DNA of 13,205 nt from a virus (Duplodnaviria; Heunggongvirae; Uroviricota; Caudoviricetes). The translations under genes and the position numbers were made by a program. Positions 1-13,205 of this stretch are shown here, piece by piece. The stretch is taken from the IMG/VR virus record IMGVR_UViG_2671180849_000011; one strand, written 5' to 3'. Below the pieces are notes generated by a model. It had not been told where the DNA came from. It saw only the letters and a list, made by a program, of their open reading frames with translations, and searched no databases. Each line of letters begins with the position of its first letter. Positions within the stretch are counted from its first letter, which is position 1.

Positions 1-88
1 CCCCCTGGGCACCGGACCCGCCTCAAAGGTCGGATCATCACAATTGGCGGGGCGATTTTATAGTCGCTTTAAGGTTTATAGACCGGAG

Positions 89-118
89 TTGACTTACCTT
101 CCGGCAACCTGCTAACAT
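89..118 (+). promoter_or_regulatory. candidate sigma70 promoter (TTGACT - 18 bp - TAACAT)
   Basis: -35 TTGACT at 89-94, 18-bp spacer, -10 TAACAT at 113-118; a 10-bp inverted repeat CCTGCTAACA (108-117) / TGTTAGCAGG (142-151) overlaps the -10 and could be an operator. Confidence 0.4.
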
Positions 119-124
119 TAGTCT

Positions 125-215
125 CGCGAGAGGTTGATTTTTGTTAGCAGGTTTTGCCCCGCATCAAAAGGATACCGGAGAAGAGCCCCTTTGTTAACAC
201 TTAGGGGCTTTTTTC
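125..215 (+). ncRNA. candidate small RNA of about 90 nt (promoter-to-terminator unit with no ORF)
   Basis: Predicted start about 125 after the -10; no ATG/GTG-initiated ORF before the terminator; 5' end GCGAGAGGTTGATTT (126-140) is antisense to leader elements at 8510-8527 and 9052-9069 of - strand mRNAs. Confidence 0.3.
184..215 (+). terminator. rho-independent terminator
   Basis: Stem AGCCCCT (184-190) / AGGGGCT (203-209), 12-nt loop, then T-run 209-214; sits just beyond the stop (266-268) of the convergent 708-aa gene. Confidence 0.6.
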
Positions 216-265
216 TTGCCTGGAGTTTATCCGGTCAGGCTAACTTATTGATTTAGATCACAATA

Positions 266-3572: not shown

Positions 3573-4058
3573 CTATTTGCGCTGCATTGCTTTCCGGACT
3601 TTATTGCTGTGGCGGCGGTAGATGAATATAAATTCGCGATAAGCACGACTACCGGGCTTAGGCAAACGTTGATTAAGCTCCTTACGTGGCAGGAGGTCGC
3701 TCAACAAGCCCCAGACATGAAAGCAGGTTACTTTTAATTCTTTTGCTATCTCTTCAATATTCATCCCGCAATTCCACATTAAAAGAGATTTGCGGCGGCG
3801 ATCTTCGAAGACATTTCTATCTCTATCTATTTCGTTATAGACACTGAGGGGAACTCGACACCGTGGATTCCAGGATTCTTCATATAGTTTTTGGACTTTC
3901 TCAAGTTTAACGCCTGTATATTCCGCCACGAATTCAGGGGTAAAGCCCTCGACTAATAAGTGTTTGGCCTGTCGTGTTGGTTGATCATCACTGGGGAGAT
4001 ATTTCTGCAGTGCTACCAGTTTTTCAAATTGGGAATCAGAAAGATCAGATTTGAACAT
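3573..4058 (-). CDS. hypothetical DNA-binding protein (161 aa) with two HTH-like segments
   Basis: ATG 4058 preceded by GGAG at 8-nt spacing; segments FTPEFVAEYTGVKLEKVQKL and GMNIEEIAKELKVTCFHVWGLL resemble HTH motifs; basic C-terminus. Confidence 0.5.
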   Translation of the reverse strand: MFKSDLSDSQFEKLVALQKYLPSDDQPTRQAKHLLVEGFTPEFVAEYTGVKLEKVQKLYEESWNPRCRVPLSVYNEIDRDRNVFEDRRRKSLLMWNCGMNIEEIAKELKVTCFHVWGLLSDLLPRKELNQRLPKPGSRAYREFIFIYRRHSNKVRKAMQRK

Positions 4059-4146
4059 GATTAATTCTCCGAACGTTTAAAAGATCAGGGCAATCAATCT
4101 AGTTCTAGTAATTCTATGTTTAGTTTATTTAGTTTATTTGGGGGTG

Positions 4147-5460: not shown

Positions 5461-5592
5461 GATTCAATCTCCTGTTAGCTCACTAACCTGTGCGATATAT
5501 GGTTAAAAAGAAACGGGAACTTAAGACAAGCCCCCGCATTTTTGTTTAAGGAAATTCACTATGATGAGAATTACCCTATGATTTATATTTTA

Positions 5593-5742
5593 TCAGCTAT
5601 TTGCGAGATTGTCAACAATCTTTTTGTATTTATCTATCATTTTTTCTTCAAGGTTGTCGATTGCAGCTACTCCGGCTATGTAGGCAACACCGCACCACAG
5701 TACAGCCAGGTTGATGATCGCTATAGCGTCGCTCAGTTCCAC
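5593..5742 (-). CDS. small single-pass membrane protein (49 aa, GTG start), not in ORF track
   Basis: GTG 5742 preceded by GGAGG at 5-nt spacing; translation VELSDAIAIINLAVLWCGVAYIAGVAAIDNLEEKMIDKYKKIVDNLANS is one hydrophobic helix plus charged tail; stop TGA 5593-5595. Confidence 0.3.
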   Translation of the reverse strand: MELSDAIAIINLAVLWCGVAYIAGVAAIDNLEEKMIDKYKKIVDNLANS

Positions 5743-5786
5743 GTTGACCTCCGGATCTGTTTCTCCCACTATCTATAATCTTATCA

Positions 5787-5808
5787 TATTGACAACCAAT
5801 TGTCAATA
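5787..5808. promoter_or_regulatory. palindromic operator overlapping candidate leftward promoter
   Basis: Perfect inverted repeat TTGACAA (5789-5795) - CCAA - TTGTCAA (5800-5806), arms extend to 9 bp; on the - strand TTGACA, 17-bp spacer, TAAGAT; a third half-site TTGTCAAT at 5929-5936. Confidence 0.4.
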
Positions 5809-6424
5809 GGAATCATTATCATTTAGGCGAGCTATAGGTACAAACAAGTCCACAGCAAAGGGGTAAGCATTATTAATGGCCCCTACCGTGTCAAAACCAA
5901 AGTCACTTATAGCATTTATGCAATAAGATTGTCAATGGCCCACAAGGGAGGGAGAGCACTTTTTGCCTTAAGCGCTCTAAAATCGATTCTAACGCGATTT
6001 AGAGGTCAGGTAATGCAATTGCACTACTCACACAAGTTAATGCAGCCAGAAGGCCATTTAGGGGCCTTATTTTCGATTTCTGAGCGTCCTGTTACGTGTG
6101 TGCATACACGGGCGCGCGGAATCCCTCGCTTAAACGGTCCGGATTGGAAACAGAAGTCTCTTATCCGGACTCCACATTATATAGCTACGTGCTATCGCAC
6201 TACGCTACCCACACACAGGCCGACGTAGTCGGTTTAGCTGTATAGCTAAAGTCACAGAGTGACCCACACACAGATTGCCTAAAGAGTCGCTAATGCTCTT
6301 TAGGCTTTCATTTGTGGGTTAAGCTTTTCCCTTAGAAAACCTTCCCCACTCTCTGATCCCTCCCCATTCCCCTTGGGGGGTTAGGGGGGGATCTGTTGTG
6401 TGATCTATTAATTTATCTATTAGA

Positions 6425-6645
6425 GTGAGAAATTTTCAGGGGTACTAGTGAGAAATCTTCGGTAGTAGTGGTGAGAAATTCTCAGGGGTGTGGGTAGGTA
6501 TGGTGGTTAAGTAGTGAGAAATCTTCAGTAGTTAGAGGCTGTGTATCATGGGGGCAATGACTGCAAAACGGGAAAGCATGACTGTATAAACACACAGGTG
6601 TGAAAATTCTTCACAGGTTAGCGACACCGGAAAAATCTTCAGTAG
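6425..6645. repeat. iteron-like direct repeats, six copies of about 18 bp (consensus GTGAGAAATCTTCAG(G/T)(G/A)G)
   Basis: Copies at 6425-6442, 6448-6465, 6471-6488 (exact 23-bp phasing), 6514-6531, 6598-6617 (degenerate), 6630-6645; preceded by G-run GGGGGGTTAGGGGGGG 6375-6390. Confidence 0.6.
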
Positions 6646-6655
6646 TGTCTATCTG

Positions 6656-6753
6656 CATATGTGGGAAATACACCCTTATTGACCTATTTTGACTAGCAAA
6701 CCTCTCTCTTCTCTCTTTGCTCTGATTTCCTCTCATGTGTGGGAAATATGCAT
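6656..6753. repeat. second repeat family CAT(A/G)TGTGGGAAATA (two copies) flanking a CT-rich tract
   Basis: catatgtgggaaata at 6656-6670 and catgtgtgggaaata at 6734-6748; pyrimidine-rich tract 6701-6734; a related copy aaaatgtgggatata near 7047-7061. Confidence 0.45.
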
Positions 6754-7488
6754 ACCAACACCCGTTGATTTTATCAATAGCTATGTTGACCGGGCATCAT
6801 AAGTGTGGCCCCTGAGGCAGTCCATCCTTCCCTCACACAGGACAATGAATATATAAAGAACATGAAAGACTGTTCACACCAACACGCCGATAAATTGCCT
6901 GAAGAGGCTTACATGGGGTTATTGTTGTGTGGGTAATGGTGATCATGCTAACAGATTATGTTAATCAGATGTAAATTCCGATTTTGTGGTCTGCATGGAG
7001 CAAACTATACTGGTTAAATGATCAGGGGAATGACTACAAAACAATCAAAAATGTGGGATATAGCCATCTACACGTCTAATGTGCTGTGTGGGGTGTTAGT
7101 GCATGCTTACATGTAAGTCATTGATTTGAAGGGTTGGGAAAATTGCATTTAACATAATAGATCTTATCTACACTAATAAAGCGAACTACAAAATCTGATT
7201 TAAAAATCATGATCAGTGGGCACAGAATTTACGTACAGCCACCTGAATAAATAATGTGCACAACATACAGCAAAGCTTAAGAATTAACATAATAGCAACG
7301 TGGTCAGTAGTGGTGTGATATTTGAGAATTGTTAGAAGAAAAAAGGGAGGTGGGGGAGCGCCTGCCTGGCACCTCAGACGAGTTACCCATAAGCTCAAAT
7401 ACCGCTAATGGATATTTCTGACACCCACACCCAAGACCGCTTTCAGCACATAGCCATATAGCCACACAGGACCGCACAGGATGCAATT

Positions 7489-7698
7489 GTGATAACAAAA
7501 AATGGGGGTGTAATAGGGTAGGTCACCTTTCATCAAAATCACTTCTACGACGTTTCCAGAGTGATAACAAGAAAACAGGCCTCTAAGATTATCTGTGCCT
7601 CGTTTTTAGCTTTTTGTGTGGTTACCAGGTGAAGAGGAAATGTTAAAAACTGTTCATTTTATGCACAAACTAGTCAGGGTGATACCACAAAATGAGGT
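7489..7698. repeat. third repeat family GTGATA(A/C)CA-A-rich-GG, three copies
   Basis: gtgataacaaaaaatggggg 7489-7508, gtgataacaagaaaacagg 7561-7579, gtgataccacaaaatgagg 7679-7697; DnaA-box-like TTATGCACA at 7659-7667. Confidence 0.45.
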
Positions 7699-7887
7699 GT
7701 AAGAAATCCAGCTGCAGATAATCTTGCAGCCAGATTTTGCAGTTTTTTAGGGTATGTTAAATTTGACAAAAATAGAGAAAAGGCTTATTAAGCTAACTTA
7801 TTGATTTTATTAGTATTACGAAAAAGGGTTACACCCTCTCTCTTACTCTGTCAACCGGGCGGTTGTGGCATAAAACGGATTAAATCA

Positions 7888-7946
7888 ATAAATAGGCATT
7901 AAATAGGGGATAAATAGGGGTTAATTGAGGGATAAATAAAAAGGGG
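7888..7946. repeat. five tandem 11-bp phased repeats (A/T)TAAAT(A/T)GGGG
   Basis: Units start at 7888, 7899, 7910, 7921, 7932 (exact 11-bp period); last unit merges into the terminator stem. Confidence 0.55.
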
Positions 7947-7959
7947 CCGTGATGGCCCC
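7931..7959 (-). terminator. rho-independent terminator of the membrane-protein gene
   Basis: Stem GGGGCC (7943-7948) / GGCCCC (7954-7959), loop GTGAT; - strand tail TTTTTATTTATC (complement of 7931-7942); 8 nt past stop codon 7968-7970. Confidence 0.6.
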
Positions 7960-7967
7960 CTGGTAGG

Positions 7968-8498
7968 TCAGAACAGTTTTTTGCTTTTTCTCCAACTAAC
8001 GCCGCGTTTGCCTATGCTCAGCCAGCCGCCAGCGAATCGGGTACCTGCGGTAACACTAGCTCCCCTGGTACCTACATGTGCATAAATACCTGCTCCACTG
8101 CTACCACCGCTTCTACGGCTTTTTCCGCCATCGATATCAAGGAGAACACAGATCGCATTCCACCAAAAGCCGATCACCCATATTGCAAATGCTAAGCCTA
8201 AAACGCCCCAGGTGACCGCCCACCCTTCCAGACTAGTGGGGAAGTAGAAAGCATTGAGAACAGCATTTATAGGGCGGATCAGGAGAAAATCTATAAAACC
8301 AGTATCCACATGAAACGGTCCATTGCCGAACTTGCTACTGCCAATAAATAAGGTAGCAGGGTAAAAGAAGATAGCCATTGCCCAAGGGCCAATAAGCAGG
8401 ATAGTAGCCCCGAACTGTGCGGCCTCCTTAAAGAACATTTTTACTATTGCTTTAAAAAGCTTTTTGTTTTCTGATTCTTTATCTTTCTGAAATAACAT
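7968..8498 (-). CDS. polytopic membrane protein (176 aa) with Gly/Ser/Arg-rich C-terminal tail
   Basis: ATG 8498 preceded by AAGGGG; about four hydrophobic segments; own terminator; position and type fit a superinfection-exclusion or abortive-infection moron (inference). Confidence 0.6.
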   Translation of the reverse strand: MLFQKDKESENKKLFKAIVKMFFKEAAQFGATILLIGPWAMAIFFYPATLFIGSSKFGNGPFHVDTGFIDFLLIRPINAVLNAFYFPTSLEGWAVTWGVLGLAFAIWVIGFWWNAICVLLDIDGGKSRRSGGSSGAGIYAHVGTRGASVTAGTRFAGGWLSIGKRGVSWRKSKKLF

Positions 8499-8509
8499 GA
8501 CGGTACCCC

Positions 8510-8527
8510 TTTGCGAGAAGTTGAATT
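8510..8527 (-). promoter_or_regulatory. conserved leader element copy 1, 12 nt upstream of ATG 8498
   Basis: + strand TTTGCGAGAAGTTGA (8510-8524) identical to 9052-9066 at the same distance from a start codon; 13/15 match to 126-140. Confidence 0.5.
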
Positions 8528-8839: not shown

Positions 8840-8916
8840 AAACTCCGCTCAATCATGATTAGTAGAACATCCAGGATAGCCAGACCTATTAAAAATGCTT
8901 TGCCTCCTTTGCCCAT
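8836..8916 (-). CDS. 26-aa hydrophobic micro-ORF (MGKGGKAFLIGLAILDVLLIMIERSL)
   Basis: ATG 8916 preceded by GGAGG at 6-nt spacing, 1 nt after stop of the upstream micro-ORF; stop TGA 8836-8838 overlaps ATG of the 8-codon uORF (ATGA). Confidence 0.25.
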   Translation of the reverse strand: MGKGGKAFLIGLAILDVLLIMIERSL

Positions 8917-8917
8917 C

Positions 8918-9040
8918 TCACACCTCCACACACAGAGCTAACATCAGGGCTAACACTCCAACCACCTCAATTGCCTTAACAATGTGTGGGTGATGAAACC
9001 TGGCCTTTTGCCATGCGCTGGCACTGTTCTTGATACCCAT
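8918..9040 (-). CDS. 40-aa micro-ORF with C-terminal hydrophobic helix (track ORF extends to 9145)
   Basis: Internal ATG 9040 preceded by SD AAGGTGA at 5-nt spacing and by leader element copy 2; ATG 9145 has no SD and the N-terminal extension is low-complexity. Confidence 0.3.
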   Translation of the reverse strand: MGIKNSASAWQKARFHHPHIVKAIEVVGVLALMLALCVEV

Positions 9041-9051
9041 AACTATCACCT

Positions 9052-9069
9052 TTTGCGAGAAGTTGATTT
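9052..9069 (-). promoter_or_regulatory. conserved leader element copy 2, 12 nt upstream of ATG 9040
   Basis: + strand TTTGCGAGAAGTTGA (9052-9066) identical to 8510-8524; GCGAGAAGTTGATTT (9055-9069) is 14/15 identical to 126-140. Confidence 0.5.
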
Positions 9070-9336
9070 GTTTGTTCGGTTGGGGTGCTATCAATGATCC
9101 CCTTCCTTGATTCGAACTATAGCCGGGTAAATCACTGGAAAACATTGATATTGATCAAAAGATATCTATCACGAATGAAAAAGTTATGATAGATGATAGG
9201 AGTCGCATAGCTGCGACCTTGGCTGTGTGCCAAGCCTGCAAAGCAGGTCAGGGATGAGGTGACGTATTGATGGGATTGATAGAGGTCTGAAAATACCGTT
9301 ACCACGCTAATTATTAGAATTTATATAATCAGGATG

Positions 9337-9365
9337 TTGACAATGTGAGTAAATACTGATATAAT
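9337..9365 (+). promoter_or_regulatory. perfect-consensus sigma70 promoter (TTGACA - 17 bp - TATAAT) with AT-rich upstream region
   Basis: TTGACA 9337-9342, exactly 17-bp spacer, TATAAT 9360-9365; AT-rich 9305-9335 (UP-element-like); faces the capsid genes. Confidence 0.65.
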
Positions 9366-9373
9366 ATACAGTA
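9354..9373. promoter_or_regulatory. LexA-type SOS box overlapping the -10 element
   Basis: TACTGATATAATATACAGTA matches the E. coli-type consensus TACTG(TA)5CAGTA at all ten flanking positions with an AT-only core. Confidence 0.45.
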
Positions 9374-9508
9374 TACCGTGAATCATTTAGCGAAGGTGGT
9401 TTACCGTATTTTCCTCCAAAGTAACGGCGACCAGGTAGCGGTGCCGCCTTATAAATAACACTACCCTGATCATCGTTGAGTGGTCGATTAATTCTCCTAT
9501 TGGGCTAG

Positions 9509-9517
9509 TTATCCACA
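9509..9517 (+). promoter_or_regulatory. consensus DnaA box TTATCCACA inside the capsid-operon leader
   Basis: Exact 9-mer; also the 5' arm of an inverted repeat CCACACAG (9513-9520) / CTGTGTGG (9539-9546). Confidence 0.3.
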
Positions 9518-9845
9518 CAGTTTTCTTTTGCGGGTTTTCTGTGTGGGTAGCTATCCCGAAAGGTATTTCCCCGCTGATGTGACCGCAGCCTGAACTGATT
9601 CGGGGGAGTGCCTTTCGTGATAGTGCTCTCTAGCAACCGTAACCATGCAGTGAACTATCAGCCAACTGTTGTTGGTTTTCCCCATATGGAATAGCCCCCG
9701 CTTGGACGGTGCGGGGCTATCTCCCTCTCCTTATATCAATCCCCCTTTAGATTTCCGGCATAACTTTTCGGCCCGAGCCTGTCGTGGTTTGAGAGGTTAT
9801 ACCTGAACCCTTTGAGGGGAGTTAATTTAAATCGCAGGTGATCAA

Positions 9846-10192: not shown

Positions 10193-11239
10193 ATGGCTAA
10201 GAAAGAATTCGAAGTTCGCGATCTGTGTGGTCTGATTAAAGATATCCCGCCGGATAACATGATTATTTCTGCAATGGATATCTTCAACACTACTGCTCTG
10301 TGCAATACCTTTAAATTTGAATATGACAAAGTTCGCCAGGTGAAACAAACCGCTTTCGGTCAGTATCCGCGCTACGGTGAACAGATGGCTACCATTACCG
10401 CAGATGAGCGTGAAACGGGCACGGGTGATATGGCATTCACTGCCGCATCAAGTGCTATTTATCCTTCTGACTGGCAGGGTATCCGCGTTCCTGGCAAAGA
10501 TTCCGAAGAGAATCTAGAGTCTGTAACCGCTCGTCGTGTTATTCAGCTGGGCGAAGGCTTACGCCAGACCCACGAAGAAGCACGCCAGCTTGCTCTCTTT
10601 GAGAACAAAATTATCCTCACCAAGGGTAAAGAACTGAATGTGTGCGAACTGCTGGGCGCACAGCAAACCACTTCAGAAGTGGATCTAACTCAAGATATCC
10701 TTAAACAGCTGCAGGACCTGGTTGCACTGAGCAAGGTTAAACAGCGTGGTGTCGTTCGTGCCCTGCGTGGTTTCACCCTGTTCTGCCGTGCTGAACTGTT
10801 TACCGCTATTCAGACTGATGAACTGCTCCGTAAAGTGCTGTTGTTCGGCAATCAGAACATTACCGACAAAGGTCTGATGTTCCCTGAGGATATTCTGCCG
10901 GGCTTCCCGACCTTCCGCATTCCGGGCTTAGCCCTGCGTGTGGTGCAAATGGATAGTCTGCCAGAGAATACTGCTTATCTGGTCCCACAGTTCCAGCCGC
11001 ATGCGTTAGGCGATATGGTGGGCGTTTATACTCAATTTTTCGGCCCTTGCGCTCGCAACCTGAAGCTGGCAAACGGCGCTGCACGTGAAGCTTTCATGTA
11101 TATGGAAGAGTCCAGAGGCAAACGCGAAATCTTCGTTGAATCCTCTTATGCTTTCATGAACATGATGCCTGAAGTTGTGGTTAAAGTGAGTGTTAAAAAC
11201 ACCGCCGCCGCTGCTCTGGCAAAAGCCAAGGCTAAATAA
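10193..11239 (+). CDS. major capsid protein, lambda gpE-like family (348 aa)
   Basis: ATG 10193 preceded by AAGGAGG at 6-nt spacing (track ORF starts at an upstream TTG); strong codon bias; collinear matches to lambda gpE as I recall it (FKF near N-terminus, LPENT versus LPDNT, C-terminal V-S-V); size fits. Confidence 0.6.
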   Translation: MAKKEFEVRDLCGLIKDIPPDNMIISAMDIFNTTALCNTFKFEYDKVRQVKQTAFGQYPRYGEQMATITADERETGTGDMAFTAASSAIYPSDWQGIRVPGKDSEENLESVTARRVIQLGEGLRQTHEEARQLALFENKIILTKGKELNVCELLGAQQTTSEVDLTQDILKQLQDLVALSKVKQRGVVRALRGFTLFCRAELFTAIQTDELLRKVLLFGNQNITDKGLMFPEDILPGFPTFRIPGLALRVVQMDSLPENTAYLVPQFQPHALGDMVGVYTQFFGPCARNLKLANGAAREAFMYMEESRGKREIFVESSYAFMNMMPEVVVKVSVKNTAAAALAKAKAK

Positions 11240-11243
11240 AAGC

Positions 11244-11296
11244 AAAGGGAAGAGGTGGGAGATTGTGGGTAGGTCTTTCCCTCTTCCCTTTTTTGT
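11244..11296 (+). terminator. strong rho-independent terminator after the capsid gene
   Basis: 12-bp stem AAAGGGAAGAGG (11244-11255) / CCTCTTCCCTTT (11280-11291) then T-run to 11294; begins 5 nt after stop codon. Confidence 0.65.
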
Positions 11297-11328
11297 TATC
11301 CCCGTCTTAAGTTTTTGAGGTGTCTTTT

Positions 11329-12458: not shown

Positions 12459-12913
12459 GTCCGAAAGTCCGTTGCACCATAGACAAGCGCATGATGGATA
12501 AGCTGCATAAAGAGCTCTCACAGATGGAAGGTGTAGCGGTTGGCTGGGATGACGGGAAACACTATAGCGGCCTGAATTACGCCACACTGGCAGCAATTCA
12601 TTCTGAGGGGTGGGGTGATCTGCCTAAGCGCTCCTTTATGGAATCTGCCCACGCAGCAATGCTCTATGAGAGCCTGAGACACACAAAAGCCCTGATTAAT
12701 GCAATCGTAAAGGGTGGGAGCTCTGAGGCCGTCAGGAAGCGAATAGGCAAGCGATACGCCGACATTCTGGAGACTATCCTGATTAGTGGGCAATTCAGCA
12801 ACAACAAGGTTTCCCCACAATGGGCAAGCTATAAAGGCTTCAATGATGCCATGCGCCACTATGATGATTTGATCGGTGCAATCAAATACTGGTCAAATGT
12901 GGGGAGAGGTTGA
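12455..12913 (+). CDS. hypothetical protein (152 aa), translationally coupled
   Basis: ATG 12455 overlaps upstream stop (ATGA); GGAG 8 nt upstream; no recognisable motif. Confidence 0.55.
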   Translation: MSPKVRCTIDKRMMDKLHKELSQMEGVAVGWDDGKHYSGLNYATLAAIHSEGWGDLPKRSFMESAHAAMLYESLRHTKALINAIVKGGSSEAVRKRIGKRYADILETILISGQFSNNKVSPQWASYKGFNDAMRHYDDLIGAIKYWSNVGRG

Positions 12914-12929
12914 AAAGAGGTAATAGTGT

Positions 12930-13005
12930 TCTTTTGAGGCCGTAGTGAGGCTAATCACGGTCCGGCTTAAAAAAGACAATAGGATGTCTTTTGAGGCCGT
13001 AGTGA
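12930..13005. repeat. two copies of a 19-bp direct repeat TCTTTTGAGGCCGTAGTGA
   Basis: Exact copies at 12930-12948 and 12987-13005 (57-bp spacing), similarity extends upstream (AATAG..); 17 nt after stop of the 152-aa gene. Confidence 0.5.
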
Positions 13006-13205
13006 TACACCACAAATCAGCCCCTTTCCACTTCTTTTCTCGCGATTGGTCCCTTGTGAGAATCCTTTATCAGGTATGCATTGTCCCGTGCATGAGCGGT
13101 CGATAGAGCCAGCCTCTTTCCCGGACTGGTTAGGATTTAGTGCGCTGAGAGAGCGCCGCTATCACTGTTAGCCTGTTTATCGTTGCCTGGTTTGTGCATC
13201 ACTGC

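Follow-up and report, generated by a model that had tools for sequence, protein, structure and literature searches.

ROOL, GOLLD, and raiA-type motifs are large structured noncoding RNAs of phages and mobile elements that have no assigned biochemical function. Enterobacteria also carry Hfq-type small RNAs (sRNAs) derived from 3′ untranslated regions (3′ UTRs), which arise either from an internal promoter (DapZ type) or by processing (CpxQ and SroC type), and the CI RNA of satellite P4 and the C4 RNA of phages P1 and P7 (Rfam RF01695) are antisense immunity RNAs. Here we describe a noncoding block of ~500 nucleotides (nt) that begins at a 19-bp direct repeat in the IMG/VR viral record IMGVR_UViG_2671180849_000011, a stretch of 13,205 nt that was analyzed over its whole length and that we call the window. 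We consider it probable, with real room for doubt, that a structured module, itself probably RNA, is closed by a helix for which this 19-mer supplies the 5′ strand; the module is carried by a satellite-like plasmid, and its 5′ strand is duplicated in the present isolate. Like the ROOL, GOLLD, and raiA-type RNAs, the block spans several hundred nucleotides, has covarying helices and invariant loops, and lies on phage-related mobile DNA. Unlike them, it is smaller (a core of ~270 nt, or ~500 nt with the second domain), sits at the noncoding ends of satellite-like elements, and matches none of their Rfam models at gathering or permissive thresholds.

The window corresponds to contig CYDZ01000054.1 (13,205 bp, from a draft Escherichia coli assembly), which represents a complete circular plasmid of ~13.2 kb. 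The earlier note on this DNA had reported two exact 19-bp direct repeats 57 bp apart, and both are present: TCTTTTGAGGCCGTAGTGA occurs on the + strand at 12930-12948 and at 12987-13005, 57 bp from start to start, and two such matches were seen in none of 200 dinucleotide-preserving shuffles. The search for further copies that it had proposed found none elsewhere in the window, on either strand and with up to three mismatches allowed. Its placement of the repeats downstream of the last gene is an artifact of contig linearization. On the circular plasmid, the convergent neck gene (+) and tape-measure gene (−) flank the 557-bp intergenic region that holds the repeats, and the contig break divides this region into 12914-13205 and 1-265. 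The break itself (13200-13205/1-6) falls in a poly-C run that varies among relatives (CCCCCC, CCCCC, CCACC, or CCCACC), and the window is one or two bases shorter at the join than all of them, probably as a result of assembly trimming.

Each 19-mer belongs to a tandem unit of ~57 nt made up of an AATAG box, the 19-mer, and a tail, as follows.

12908..12964, + strand: repeat unit 1, the extra tandem unit, with GGTTGA, a TAATAG box (12921-12926), 19-mer copy 1 (12930-12948), and a spacer.
12965..13027, + strand: repeat unit 2, the unit present in all relatives, with an ACAATAG box (12976-12982) and 19-mer copy 2 (12987-13005).

Unit 1 begins with the last six bases of the upstream neck gene (GGTTGA) and unit 2 with GGCTTA. 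The weaker upstream similarity described in the earlier note is real: the two units are identical at 14 of 23 positions 5′ of the core (with one indel), at 19 of 19 in the core, and at 8 of 22 after it. The spacer of unit 1 folds back on the core in a hairpin (12937-12968, −12.7 kcal/mol) that is not significant relative to shuffled sequences.

Comparison of the intergenic region extracted from 24 related plasmids shows that two copies of the 19-mer are a minority state and not a conserved property. Two cores occur only in the window, L003, and L007, and 21 of the 24 plasmids have one copy; in three of these (L006, L010, and L025) part of the spacer is retained and the first core is absent, and the other 18 have a single copy. 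In two-copy plasmids the cores of the two units are identical at 19/19 or 16/19 positions, and the flanks at 14 to 16 of 23 and 7 or 8 of 22; the units of L007 have diverged further from each other and have in common the 13-nt core GAGGCCGTAGTGA. Single-copy alleles carry either of the left-flank variants seen in two-copy forms, a pattern that recombination between the 19-mers, with loss of the extra unit, would produce. The second copy could accordingly have no function of its own, being a neutral tandem duplication, or the product of unequal crossover between multimers or coresident variants, that is now being lost again. Its absence from most relatives suits that reading, as do the single-copy left flanks, which match a deletion between the 19-mers of window-type and L003-type forms, and the three plasmids that keep only part of the spacer. 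Against it, the flanks are only 36 to 61% identical while the core is 100% identical, and the diverged L007 still has the 13-nt core in both units. Retention of the core despite flank divergence suggests constraint on both cores, or gene conversion, and we regard a functionless second copy as rather unlikely. This reading concerns the duplication only and is compatible with our explanation of the 19-mer itself.

What follows the repeat is far more uniform than the repeat. The segment from 13001 to 195 is ~99% identical across 19 plasmids, compared to 90 to 95% for coding regions and ~90% for the repeat region, so that the ~500-nt block beginning at the 19-mer is the most conserved part of the plasmid. 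Protein coding does not account for this conservation. The earlier note would have had the repeat explained if it were part of a longer duplicated coding segment, and a 53-amino-acid open reading frame (ORF) does overlap it (12945-13106); however, this ORF is broken in near-identical relatives by a T-run of 3, 4, or 5 T, and in the metagenomic relative L017 the reading frame over the conserved bases is not the same. A 16-codon ORF that follows the leader-like segment described below was rejected on the same two grounds, the T-run frameshifts and the different frame in L017.

The block extends well beyond the plasmid family. Four lineages were compared, namely, the plasmids, L017, an E. coli chromosomal island (L030), and a Klebsiella plasmid (L029). 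The neck protein of L017 is only 50% identical, and the region is kept there with blocks of identity, indels of whole hairpins, and compensatory changes. A sensitive blastn search then gave 37-nt matches to the most conserved hairpin in two unrelated contexts, L029 and L030, which have only a discrete module of ~260 nt in common. L030 (NZ_CP146893.1, 854392-872428) is an island at tRNA-Gly with the module at its end (8865-9124); it encodes a Rep-like protein (DUF6945), a homolog of the plasmid 161-amino-acid protein, an ImmA/IrrE-HTH regulator, and a truncated integrase, and has its own ORF-free gap of ~1.9 kb. The island seems to be a relative of the plasmid family that has integrated and has no structural genes. 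L029 (NZ_CP074582.1, 79300-87336) belongs to a 120-kb plasmid of Klebsiella pneumoniae, and its module (3866-4124), which shares 90% identity with the island copy, has a serine-recombinase region on one side and a chromosomal-type sodB-purR segment on the other, a context that indicates that the module travels independently of the satellite genes. Scans of IMG/VR and of Genome Taxonomy Database (GTDB) representative genomes by DNA motif and by protein found no homologs, and a metagenome scan added only two near-identical plasmids.

In all four lineages the module starts with an AATA(G) box, followed 9 to 10 nt later by GCCGTRRTG; the plasmid box occurs in the variants GACAAT, GGTAAT, GTCAAT, and GGCAAT. 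The earlier note had proposed that the repeats are binding sites for a packaging or regulatory protein, attachment-type repeats, or 3′ processing signals. Its premise of a functional site stands, since the 19-mer has been kept in four lineages, the proteins of which are unrelated or no more than 50% identical, and is thus a functional box and not a chance repeat. The roles that it suggested fare less well, since the 19-mer forms one strand of a long-range helix, and its best-supported role is neither that of a double-stranded protein-binding site nor that of a simple 3′ processing signal. This helix, P1, is made of four segments that lie on either side of the contig break.

12988-12997, + strand: P1a 5′ strand, CTTTTGAGGC, in 19-mer copy 2.
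12999-13006, + strand: P1b 5′ strand, GTAGTGAT, in the region of copy 2.
13194..13205, + strand: P1b 3′ strand (GTG.CATCACTGC), serving as inner partner of the 19-mer right where the window ends.
20..29, + strand: P1a 3′ strand, GCCTCAAAGG, the outer partner of CTTTTGAGGC, at the start of the window.

In the plasmids, the outer half pairs CUUUUGAGGC with GCCUCAAAGG (window 20-29) and the inner half pairs GUAGUGAU with AUCACUGC (window 13198-13205); a poly-C bulge of ~21 nt between the two 3′ strands spans the contig break. For L002, window copy 2, L007 copy 1, and L030, the duplex came to −25 to −32 kcal/mol, values reached by at most 1% of shuffles; the plasmid values of −25 to −27 kcal/mol were matched by 0.3 to 0.7% of shuffled boxes. 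Within the window, copy 2 pairs with the distal partner at −27.0 kcal/mol (0.3% of shuffles) and copy 1 with the same partner at −25.7 kcal/mol (9% of shuffles); as both copies can pair with a single partner, they are mutually exclusive alternatives. In the island, all 10 pairs of the outer half (CAUUUAGCGC/GCGCUAAGUG) are kept with four double changes, and the inner half (CGUGAUGG/UCAUCACG) has the same arrangement in a different sequence, giving −31.5 kcal/mol, a value reached by none of 300 shuffles. A formal count on compact constructs gave 19 pairs with 91.6% of cells paired, and double changes at 7 pairs (7/500 shuffles) and in 14 cells (0/500 shuffles), compared to 0 or 1 in slid controls. 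Natural variants in the P1b 3′ strand, A to G in L003, L005, and L022 and G to A in L019, lie opposite U and keep the pairing. Two simpler arrangements were considered. A conserved local hairpin of the 19-mer was rejected, as it is strong in L017 and not in the plasmids, with a four-lineage consensus energy of about zero. A long-range helix with GCCUCAAAGG only could not be decided from the plasmids and L017, and the pairing was settled only after the island copies and the inner half had been added.

P1 closes over a region that is itself strongly folded. The intact + strand copy has a minimum free energy of −171.8 kcal/mol (z = −5.25, 0/100 shuffles), compared to z = −2.33 for the − strand. 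Over the whole block, a six-sequence alignment contains 10 compensatory pairs, compared to 1.8 ± 1.3 in shuffles (0/500) and 1 to 3 in slid controls. The best-defined part is the following domain.

13065..13186, + strand: Domain A, a three-way junction; covariance model match of 151.9 bits.

In Domain A, CAGGU/GCCUG forms the outer stem and AUGCA/UGCAU a hairpin; the long arm leads to the invariant loop CUCUUUCCCGGA and then GUUAGGAU. Its covariance model was built from the plasmids and L017 only and finds the island and Klebsiella copies at full length (E of ~1e−10); it finds nothing in fragments of rV5-like phages or in the terminal-repeat region of phage KPP-1. Twelve of its 34 pairs are compensatory, compared to 3.8 ± 1.4 in shuffles (0/500) and 1 or 2 in slid controls, and each lineage folds independently into the same architecture. 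The block thus shows compensatory substitutions beyond both shuffled and slid controls, as is looked for in structured RNAs generally. The + strand is favored as the folded one by the conserved G·U pairs, which would be A·C on the other strand, and by + strand terminators or terminator-like hairpins located 3′ of the module in the plasmids, L017, and the island. Promoter and terminator matches on the − strand of the island copy occur at chance frequency, conflict with the conserved G·U pairs, and were set aside.

No known family was recognized. Searched with Rfam 15 (4,227 models), the window gave no matches at the gathering threshold, and the intact locus of L002 gave just subthreshold, terminator-like matches at E ≤ 10. 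Matches in L017, L029, and L030 were confined to a tRNA, STnc550, and a weak sodB thermometer, all of which lie outside the module.

Downstream of P1, the block continues into a second folded domain that carries a promoter-like sequence, a 12-mer with counterparts elsewhere on the plasmid, and a terminator. The features concerned are as follows.

47..162, + strand: Domain B, closed by GCGGGGC (47-53) and GCCCCGC (156-162).
83-88/99-104 and 108-117/142-151, + strand: Domain B hairpins CCGGAG/TTCCGG and CCTGCTAACA/TGTTAGCAGG, respectively.
89..118, + strand: internal sigma-70-like promoter with TTGACT (89-94), an 18-nt spacer, and the extended −10 sequence TGcTAACAT (110-118), as a consensus match only.
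126..137, + strand: 12-mer GCGAGAGGTTGA, situated within the 108-151 hairpin loop and at the start predicted for a transcript of ~90 nt.
184..216, + strand: intrinsic terminator of the block, AGCCCCT...AGGGGCT followed by T6.
8513..8524, − strand: leader motif and putative antisense target 1 (UCAACUUCUCGC in mRNA sense), just 5′ of the ribosome-binding site (RBS) of a gene for a 176-amino-acid membrane protein (start at 8498).
9055..9066, − strand: leader motif and putative antisense target 2, just 5′ of the RBS of a hydrophobic 40-amino-acid ORF (start at 9040).
13038..13045, + strand: leader-like TTCTCGCG, sharing the orientation of the mRNA leaders, with its complement in the loop 12-mer at 125-132.

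The elements of the second domain are retained in L017, where the closing helix of Domain B has four compensatory pairs (GCUGAUA/UAUCAGC), the promoter takes the form TTGACT-16/17-TGtTAGTAT, and the terminator keeps its T-run intact with a compensatory change. The promoter was seen on the intact locus of L006, and its predicted start, at ~125-126, coincides with the 12-mer GCGAGAGGTTGA, which is complementary, with one G·U pair, to UCAACUUCUCGC in the two − strand leaders. Viewed on one DNA strand, the 12-mer GCGAGARGTTGA occurs at three sites with one A/G difference, an arrangement found in every complete plasmid, and the motif at 8513-8524 is retained in L015 despite unrelated flanks. The conservation of this three-site arrangement makes it reasonable to infer an sRNA of ~90 nt with a 5′ seed that regulates the two genes. 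An intrinsic terminator with a U-tail is found together with seed complementarity adjacent to an RBS, the combination looked for in antisense sRNAs and read here from sequence only. A fourth near-copy of the 12-mer, GGGAGAGGTTGA at 12902-12913, forms the end of the neck gene.

The earlier note had also pointed to a partial copy of the leader motif on the − strand after the repeats. This copy is TTCTCGCG, which reads CGCGAGAA on the − strand, and tying the repeat region to the leader motif proved a good lead because the same block carries the 12-mer complementary to that motif. The variable T-run (3 to 5 T) lies just upstream of TTCTCGCG, and a local hairpin predicted at this position is broken in L015, L022, and L017. 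Within a long transcript, TTCTCGCG could pair with the seed of the 12-mer.

With the enterobacterial 3′-UTR-derived sRNAs of the Hfq type, the block shares its position after the last gene of an operon, the use of that operon's intrinsic terminator, and an internal sigma-70-like promoter, as well as a predicted single-stranded 5′ seed, A/U-rich sequence, a long U-tail, and complementarity adjacent to RBSs. It differs from them in that the putative sRNA is embedded in a larger conserved fold whose closing helix spans the promoter, and in that the putative targets are on the same plasmid. The P4 CI and P1/P7 C4 RNAs offer another parallel, as small structured RNAs of a satellite or phage-plasmid in which a loop or seed pairs with short repeated targets in the leaders of the element's own operons. 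In contrast to these, the block has no match to the Rfam C4 model, the RNA and its targets are on opposite strands ~4.5 kb apart, and the 19-mer repeat is not the sequence complementary to the targets.

Put together, these features suggest a mechanism in which P1 would close the ~270-nt 5′ domain of a folded noncoding element of ~500 nt on the + strand, most likely an RNA. That RNA could correspond to a long 3′ UTR at the end of the neck-gene transcript or could arise from this transcript by processing, and would present in order the AATAG box and 19-mer, the three-way-junction domain, and a second domain ending in the intrinsic terminator. In the window, where the first ~57 nt are duplicated, two alternative 5′ strands would compete for one 3′ partner, and the extra unit would be easily lost by recombination between the 19-mers. 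The second copy may be redundant or may provide an alternative fold. The 3′ domain would yield the sRNA of ~90 nt from its own promoter, with a 5′ end (GCGAGAGGUUGA) that would pair with the two − strand leaders and control translation. The 5′ domain closed by the 19-mer may serve as a recognition or stability module common to related integrated elements.

Several observations weigh against this account. We infer that the folded molecule is RNA, and its function likewise. Signs that the folded strand is transcribed are indirect, namely, the + strand terminators at the 3′ end, the + strand operon that lies upstream, and the internal promoter-like site. The P1 partner segments were chosen by RNAduplex and by eye before the formal count, which favors pairing in that count, and two of the covariation alignments were fitted or constructed. 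In L017 the outer half of P1 keeps only 8 of 10 pairs and the inner half is in a different register, and whole-sequence thermodynamic folding pairs the U-rich part of the 19-mer elsewhere. For Domain A of the Klebsiella lineage, the − strand gives the slightly better fold, and the effective phylogenetic depth is only four lineages. No promoter was found directly upstream of the AATAG box, and a terminator-like hairpin at 11236-11299 makes read-through from the operon promoter into the block uncertain. For the antisense model, the basis is 12 nt of complementarity together with conservation, and when further antisense targets of the block were sought by exact matching, the matches did not rise above the chance level.

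The gene content of the plasmid bears on two other readings of the block and on several candidates that were dismissed. Distant homologs of phage structural proteins are encoded on the plasmid, namely, of the major head protein, the Dit-like tail-tube initiator, the neck protein, and the tape-measure protein. They are 26 to 51% identical to those of rV5/phiTE-like myoviruses, and the plasmid shows no DNA similarity to phages (megablast, blastn, and tblastn). The plasmid also encodes a regulator of the HTH_7 type and a replication module that consists of a Rep protein (HTH_36) and an iteron array (GTGAGAAATYTTCRG/GTGAGAAATYTTCRGKRGT at 6425-6646, with 23-bp spacing), so that replication appears to be of the iteron/Rep (theta) type. 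No terminase, portal, or integrase was recognized among the plasmid ORFs, no tRNA or transfer-messenger RNA genes were found in it, and it has no relaxase; PLSDB types these plasmids as nonmobilizable. As judged from its sequence, this content is what is expected of a plasmid-borne phage satellite or mini-phage. In the searchable literature we found no account of a satellite of rV5-like phages or of this plasmid family, and megablast, blastn, and tblastn searches against phages identified no helper phage.

Some proposals for the repeat can be dismissed. An attachment-site-type repeat, as suggested in the earlier note, finds no counterpart in the plasmid, which lacks an integrase among its ORFs and any tRNA-Gly-like or other att-like match. 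An iteron or other Rep-binding repeat was likewise rejected, as the 19-mer is unrelated to the array at 6425-6646 and is ~6 kb distant from it. ToxI-like loci of type III toxin-antitoxin systems have several tandem repeats of ~36 nt directly upstream of a same-strand toxin gene. Here there are at most two units of 57 nt, and usually one, and no + strand gene follows the repeats before the terminator.

More serious is the possibility that the block is a double-stranded DNA packaging region (pac/cos or terminal-repeat-like) recognized by the terminase of a helper, with the 19-mers bound, at one site or two, by the small subunit of the terminase or by a redirecting protein. Since the plasmid has capsid, neck, and tail proteins and no recognizable terminase or portal, it has to present a helper with a packaging signal. 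No other segment is as conserved as the block, the block is common to the integrated island that also has Rep-like and p161-like genes and hence belongs to a common core, and two-copy plasmids keep the core while the flanks diverge, as for a recognition box. In at least one Vequintavirinae phage, direct terminal repeats of 514 bp, flanked by convergent gene blocks, resemble the block in both size and topology (PMC9862379), whereas headful packaging is inferred in a different study (PMC13211470).

The R sites of lambda cosB and T7-type terminal repeats are a further parallel, in that short direct repeats occupy conserved noncoding DNA near the structural genes of a phage-like element that needs packaging. 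Here, however, the number of 19-mers is not fixed (one or two), the 19-mer covaries with distant partners as a folded strand does, and no similarity of the block to any phage end or packaging site was found. Compensatory changes in at least six helices, conserved G·U pairs, and a strand-biased fold are not expected of a duplex protein-binding site. Neither 50,697 phage records nor IMG/VR yielded any similarity, the plasmid proteins are only distantly related to those of rV5-like phages, and there is no identified helper. Full-length contigs have terminal overlaps that are k-mer sized only and cut points that are scattered; in 20 assemblies, which derive from cells and not from particles, there are no defined ends. 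Shared physical termini at the ends of the window, hinted at by BLAST tables, were rejected, as the fetched records are circular and cut at differing places. We consider a packaging region unlikely, though the 19-mer may still have a protein-binding or packaging role.

The fold could also form in single-stranded DNA, as an initiation or promoter element, an oriT-like site acting in trans, or a packaging hairpin like that of filamentous phages. Strand-specific structure with covariation is compatible with such a role, as are the promoter-like −10 sequence inside a hairpin arm, the position of the block at the noncoding end of an island adjoining tRNA-Gly, and a 39.6-kb record in which about three copies stand in tandem, suggestive of multimers or of rolling-circle forms. 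On the other side stand the apparent theta-type replication, the absence of a relaxase and the nonmobilizable typing, and the variability of the AATAG box, which is unlike a nick site. The many conserved G·U pairs and the U-tract terminators at the 3′ end suit RNA better, and we find single-stranded DNA very improbable.

The record just mentioned, L002 (NZ_CP043822.1, 39,610 bp, deposited as a complete plasmid), consists of approximately three head-to-tail copies of the 13-kb unit, and such multimers or concatemers bear on both packaging and unequal recombination at the repeat. Circular plasmids of 13.2 to 13.7 kb that are 90 to 95% identical to the window occur in 7 of 5,426 complete E. coli genomes. 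Strains that carry the plasmid include E. coli RM10740 (CP043822), 190 (CP020521), and E275a (CP035869). The identical 152-amino-acid neck protein, encoded just 5′ of the repeat, was found in 1,661 collection blocks, of which 1,347 have a longest contig of 10 to 20 kb. One relative, L003 (GCA_033543915.1, JAWROW010000003.1), lies at the end of a 353-kb contig, is truncated in the noncoding region, and adjoins a DDE transposase and a beta-lactamase gene, reflecting an integration or transposition event or an assembly join.

Other parts of the plasmid also hold candidate regulatory sequences. The capsid operon is driven from the + strand at 9337-9365 by a promoter that matches the sigma-70 consensus at 12 of 12 positions and has an extended −10 (TTGACA-17-TATAAT); its leader comprises ~480 untranslated nt (9366-9845). 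Part of this leader (9401-9600) is 98.9% conserved across the plasmids, and the leader is a second candidate regulatory RNA or operator region. Directly 3′ of the capsid gene, at 11236-11299, a strong inverted repeat is followed by a T-run (AAAGCAAAGGGAAGAGG...CCTCTTCCCTTTTTTGTT); it is likely an attenuating terminator that would set the capsid protein in excess over the products of the downstream tail and neck genes. Finally, ~2.5 kb of the window (5461-7967) has no credible ORFs and is uncalled in all relatives too. This stretch holds the iteron array and 11-bp tandem repeats (ATAAATAGGGG, 7888-7931), and it gives the plasmid an unusually large noncoding fraction for a 13-kb replicon.

Taken as an isolated feature, the repeat is a minor polymorphism, but it leads to the most conserved segment of a common E. 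coli plasmid family. That segment shows the hallmarks of a new structured RNA, with covariation over multiple lineages, invariant loops, no Rfam family, and occurrence in integrated islands as well. More speculatively, the 19-mer may open an undescribed class of large structured RNA that forms the noncoding core of a satellite-like family of E. coli and Klebsiella elements, comprising the 13-kb plasmids with capsid, neck, and tape-measure genes and the tRNA-Gly islands, and that acts in the interaction between satellite and helper. We hold this possibility only tentatively. The RNA would then be, for example, a riboregulator that senses the helper, or an RNA for packaging or assembly, and the duplicated 5′ strand would be a structural switch. 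If the block is a packaging signal instead, it would define what the helper phage recognizes. If it is RNA, it is a candidate for a new family and would provide a handle on the regulation or mobilization of mini-elements that encode capsids and tails.

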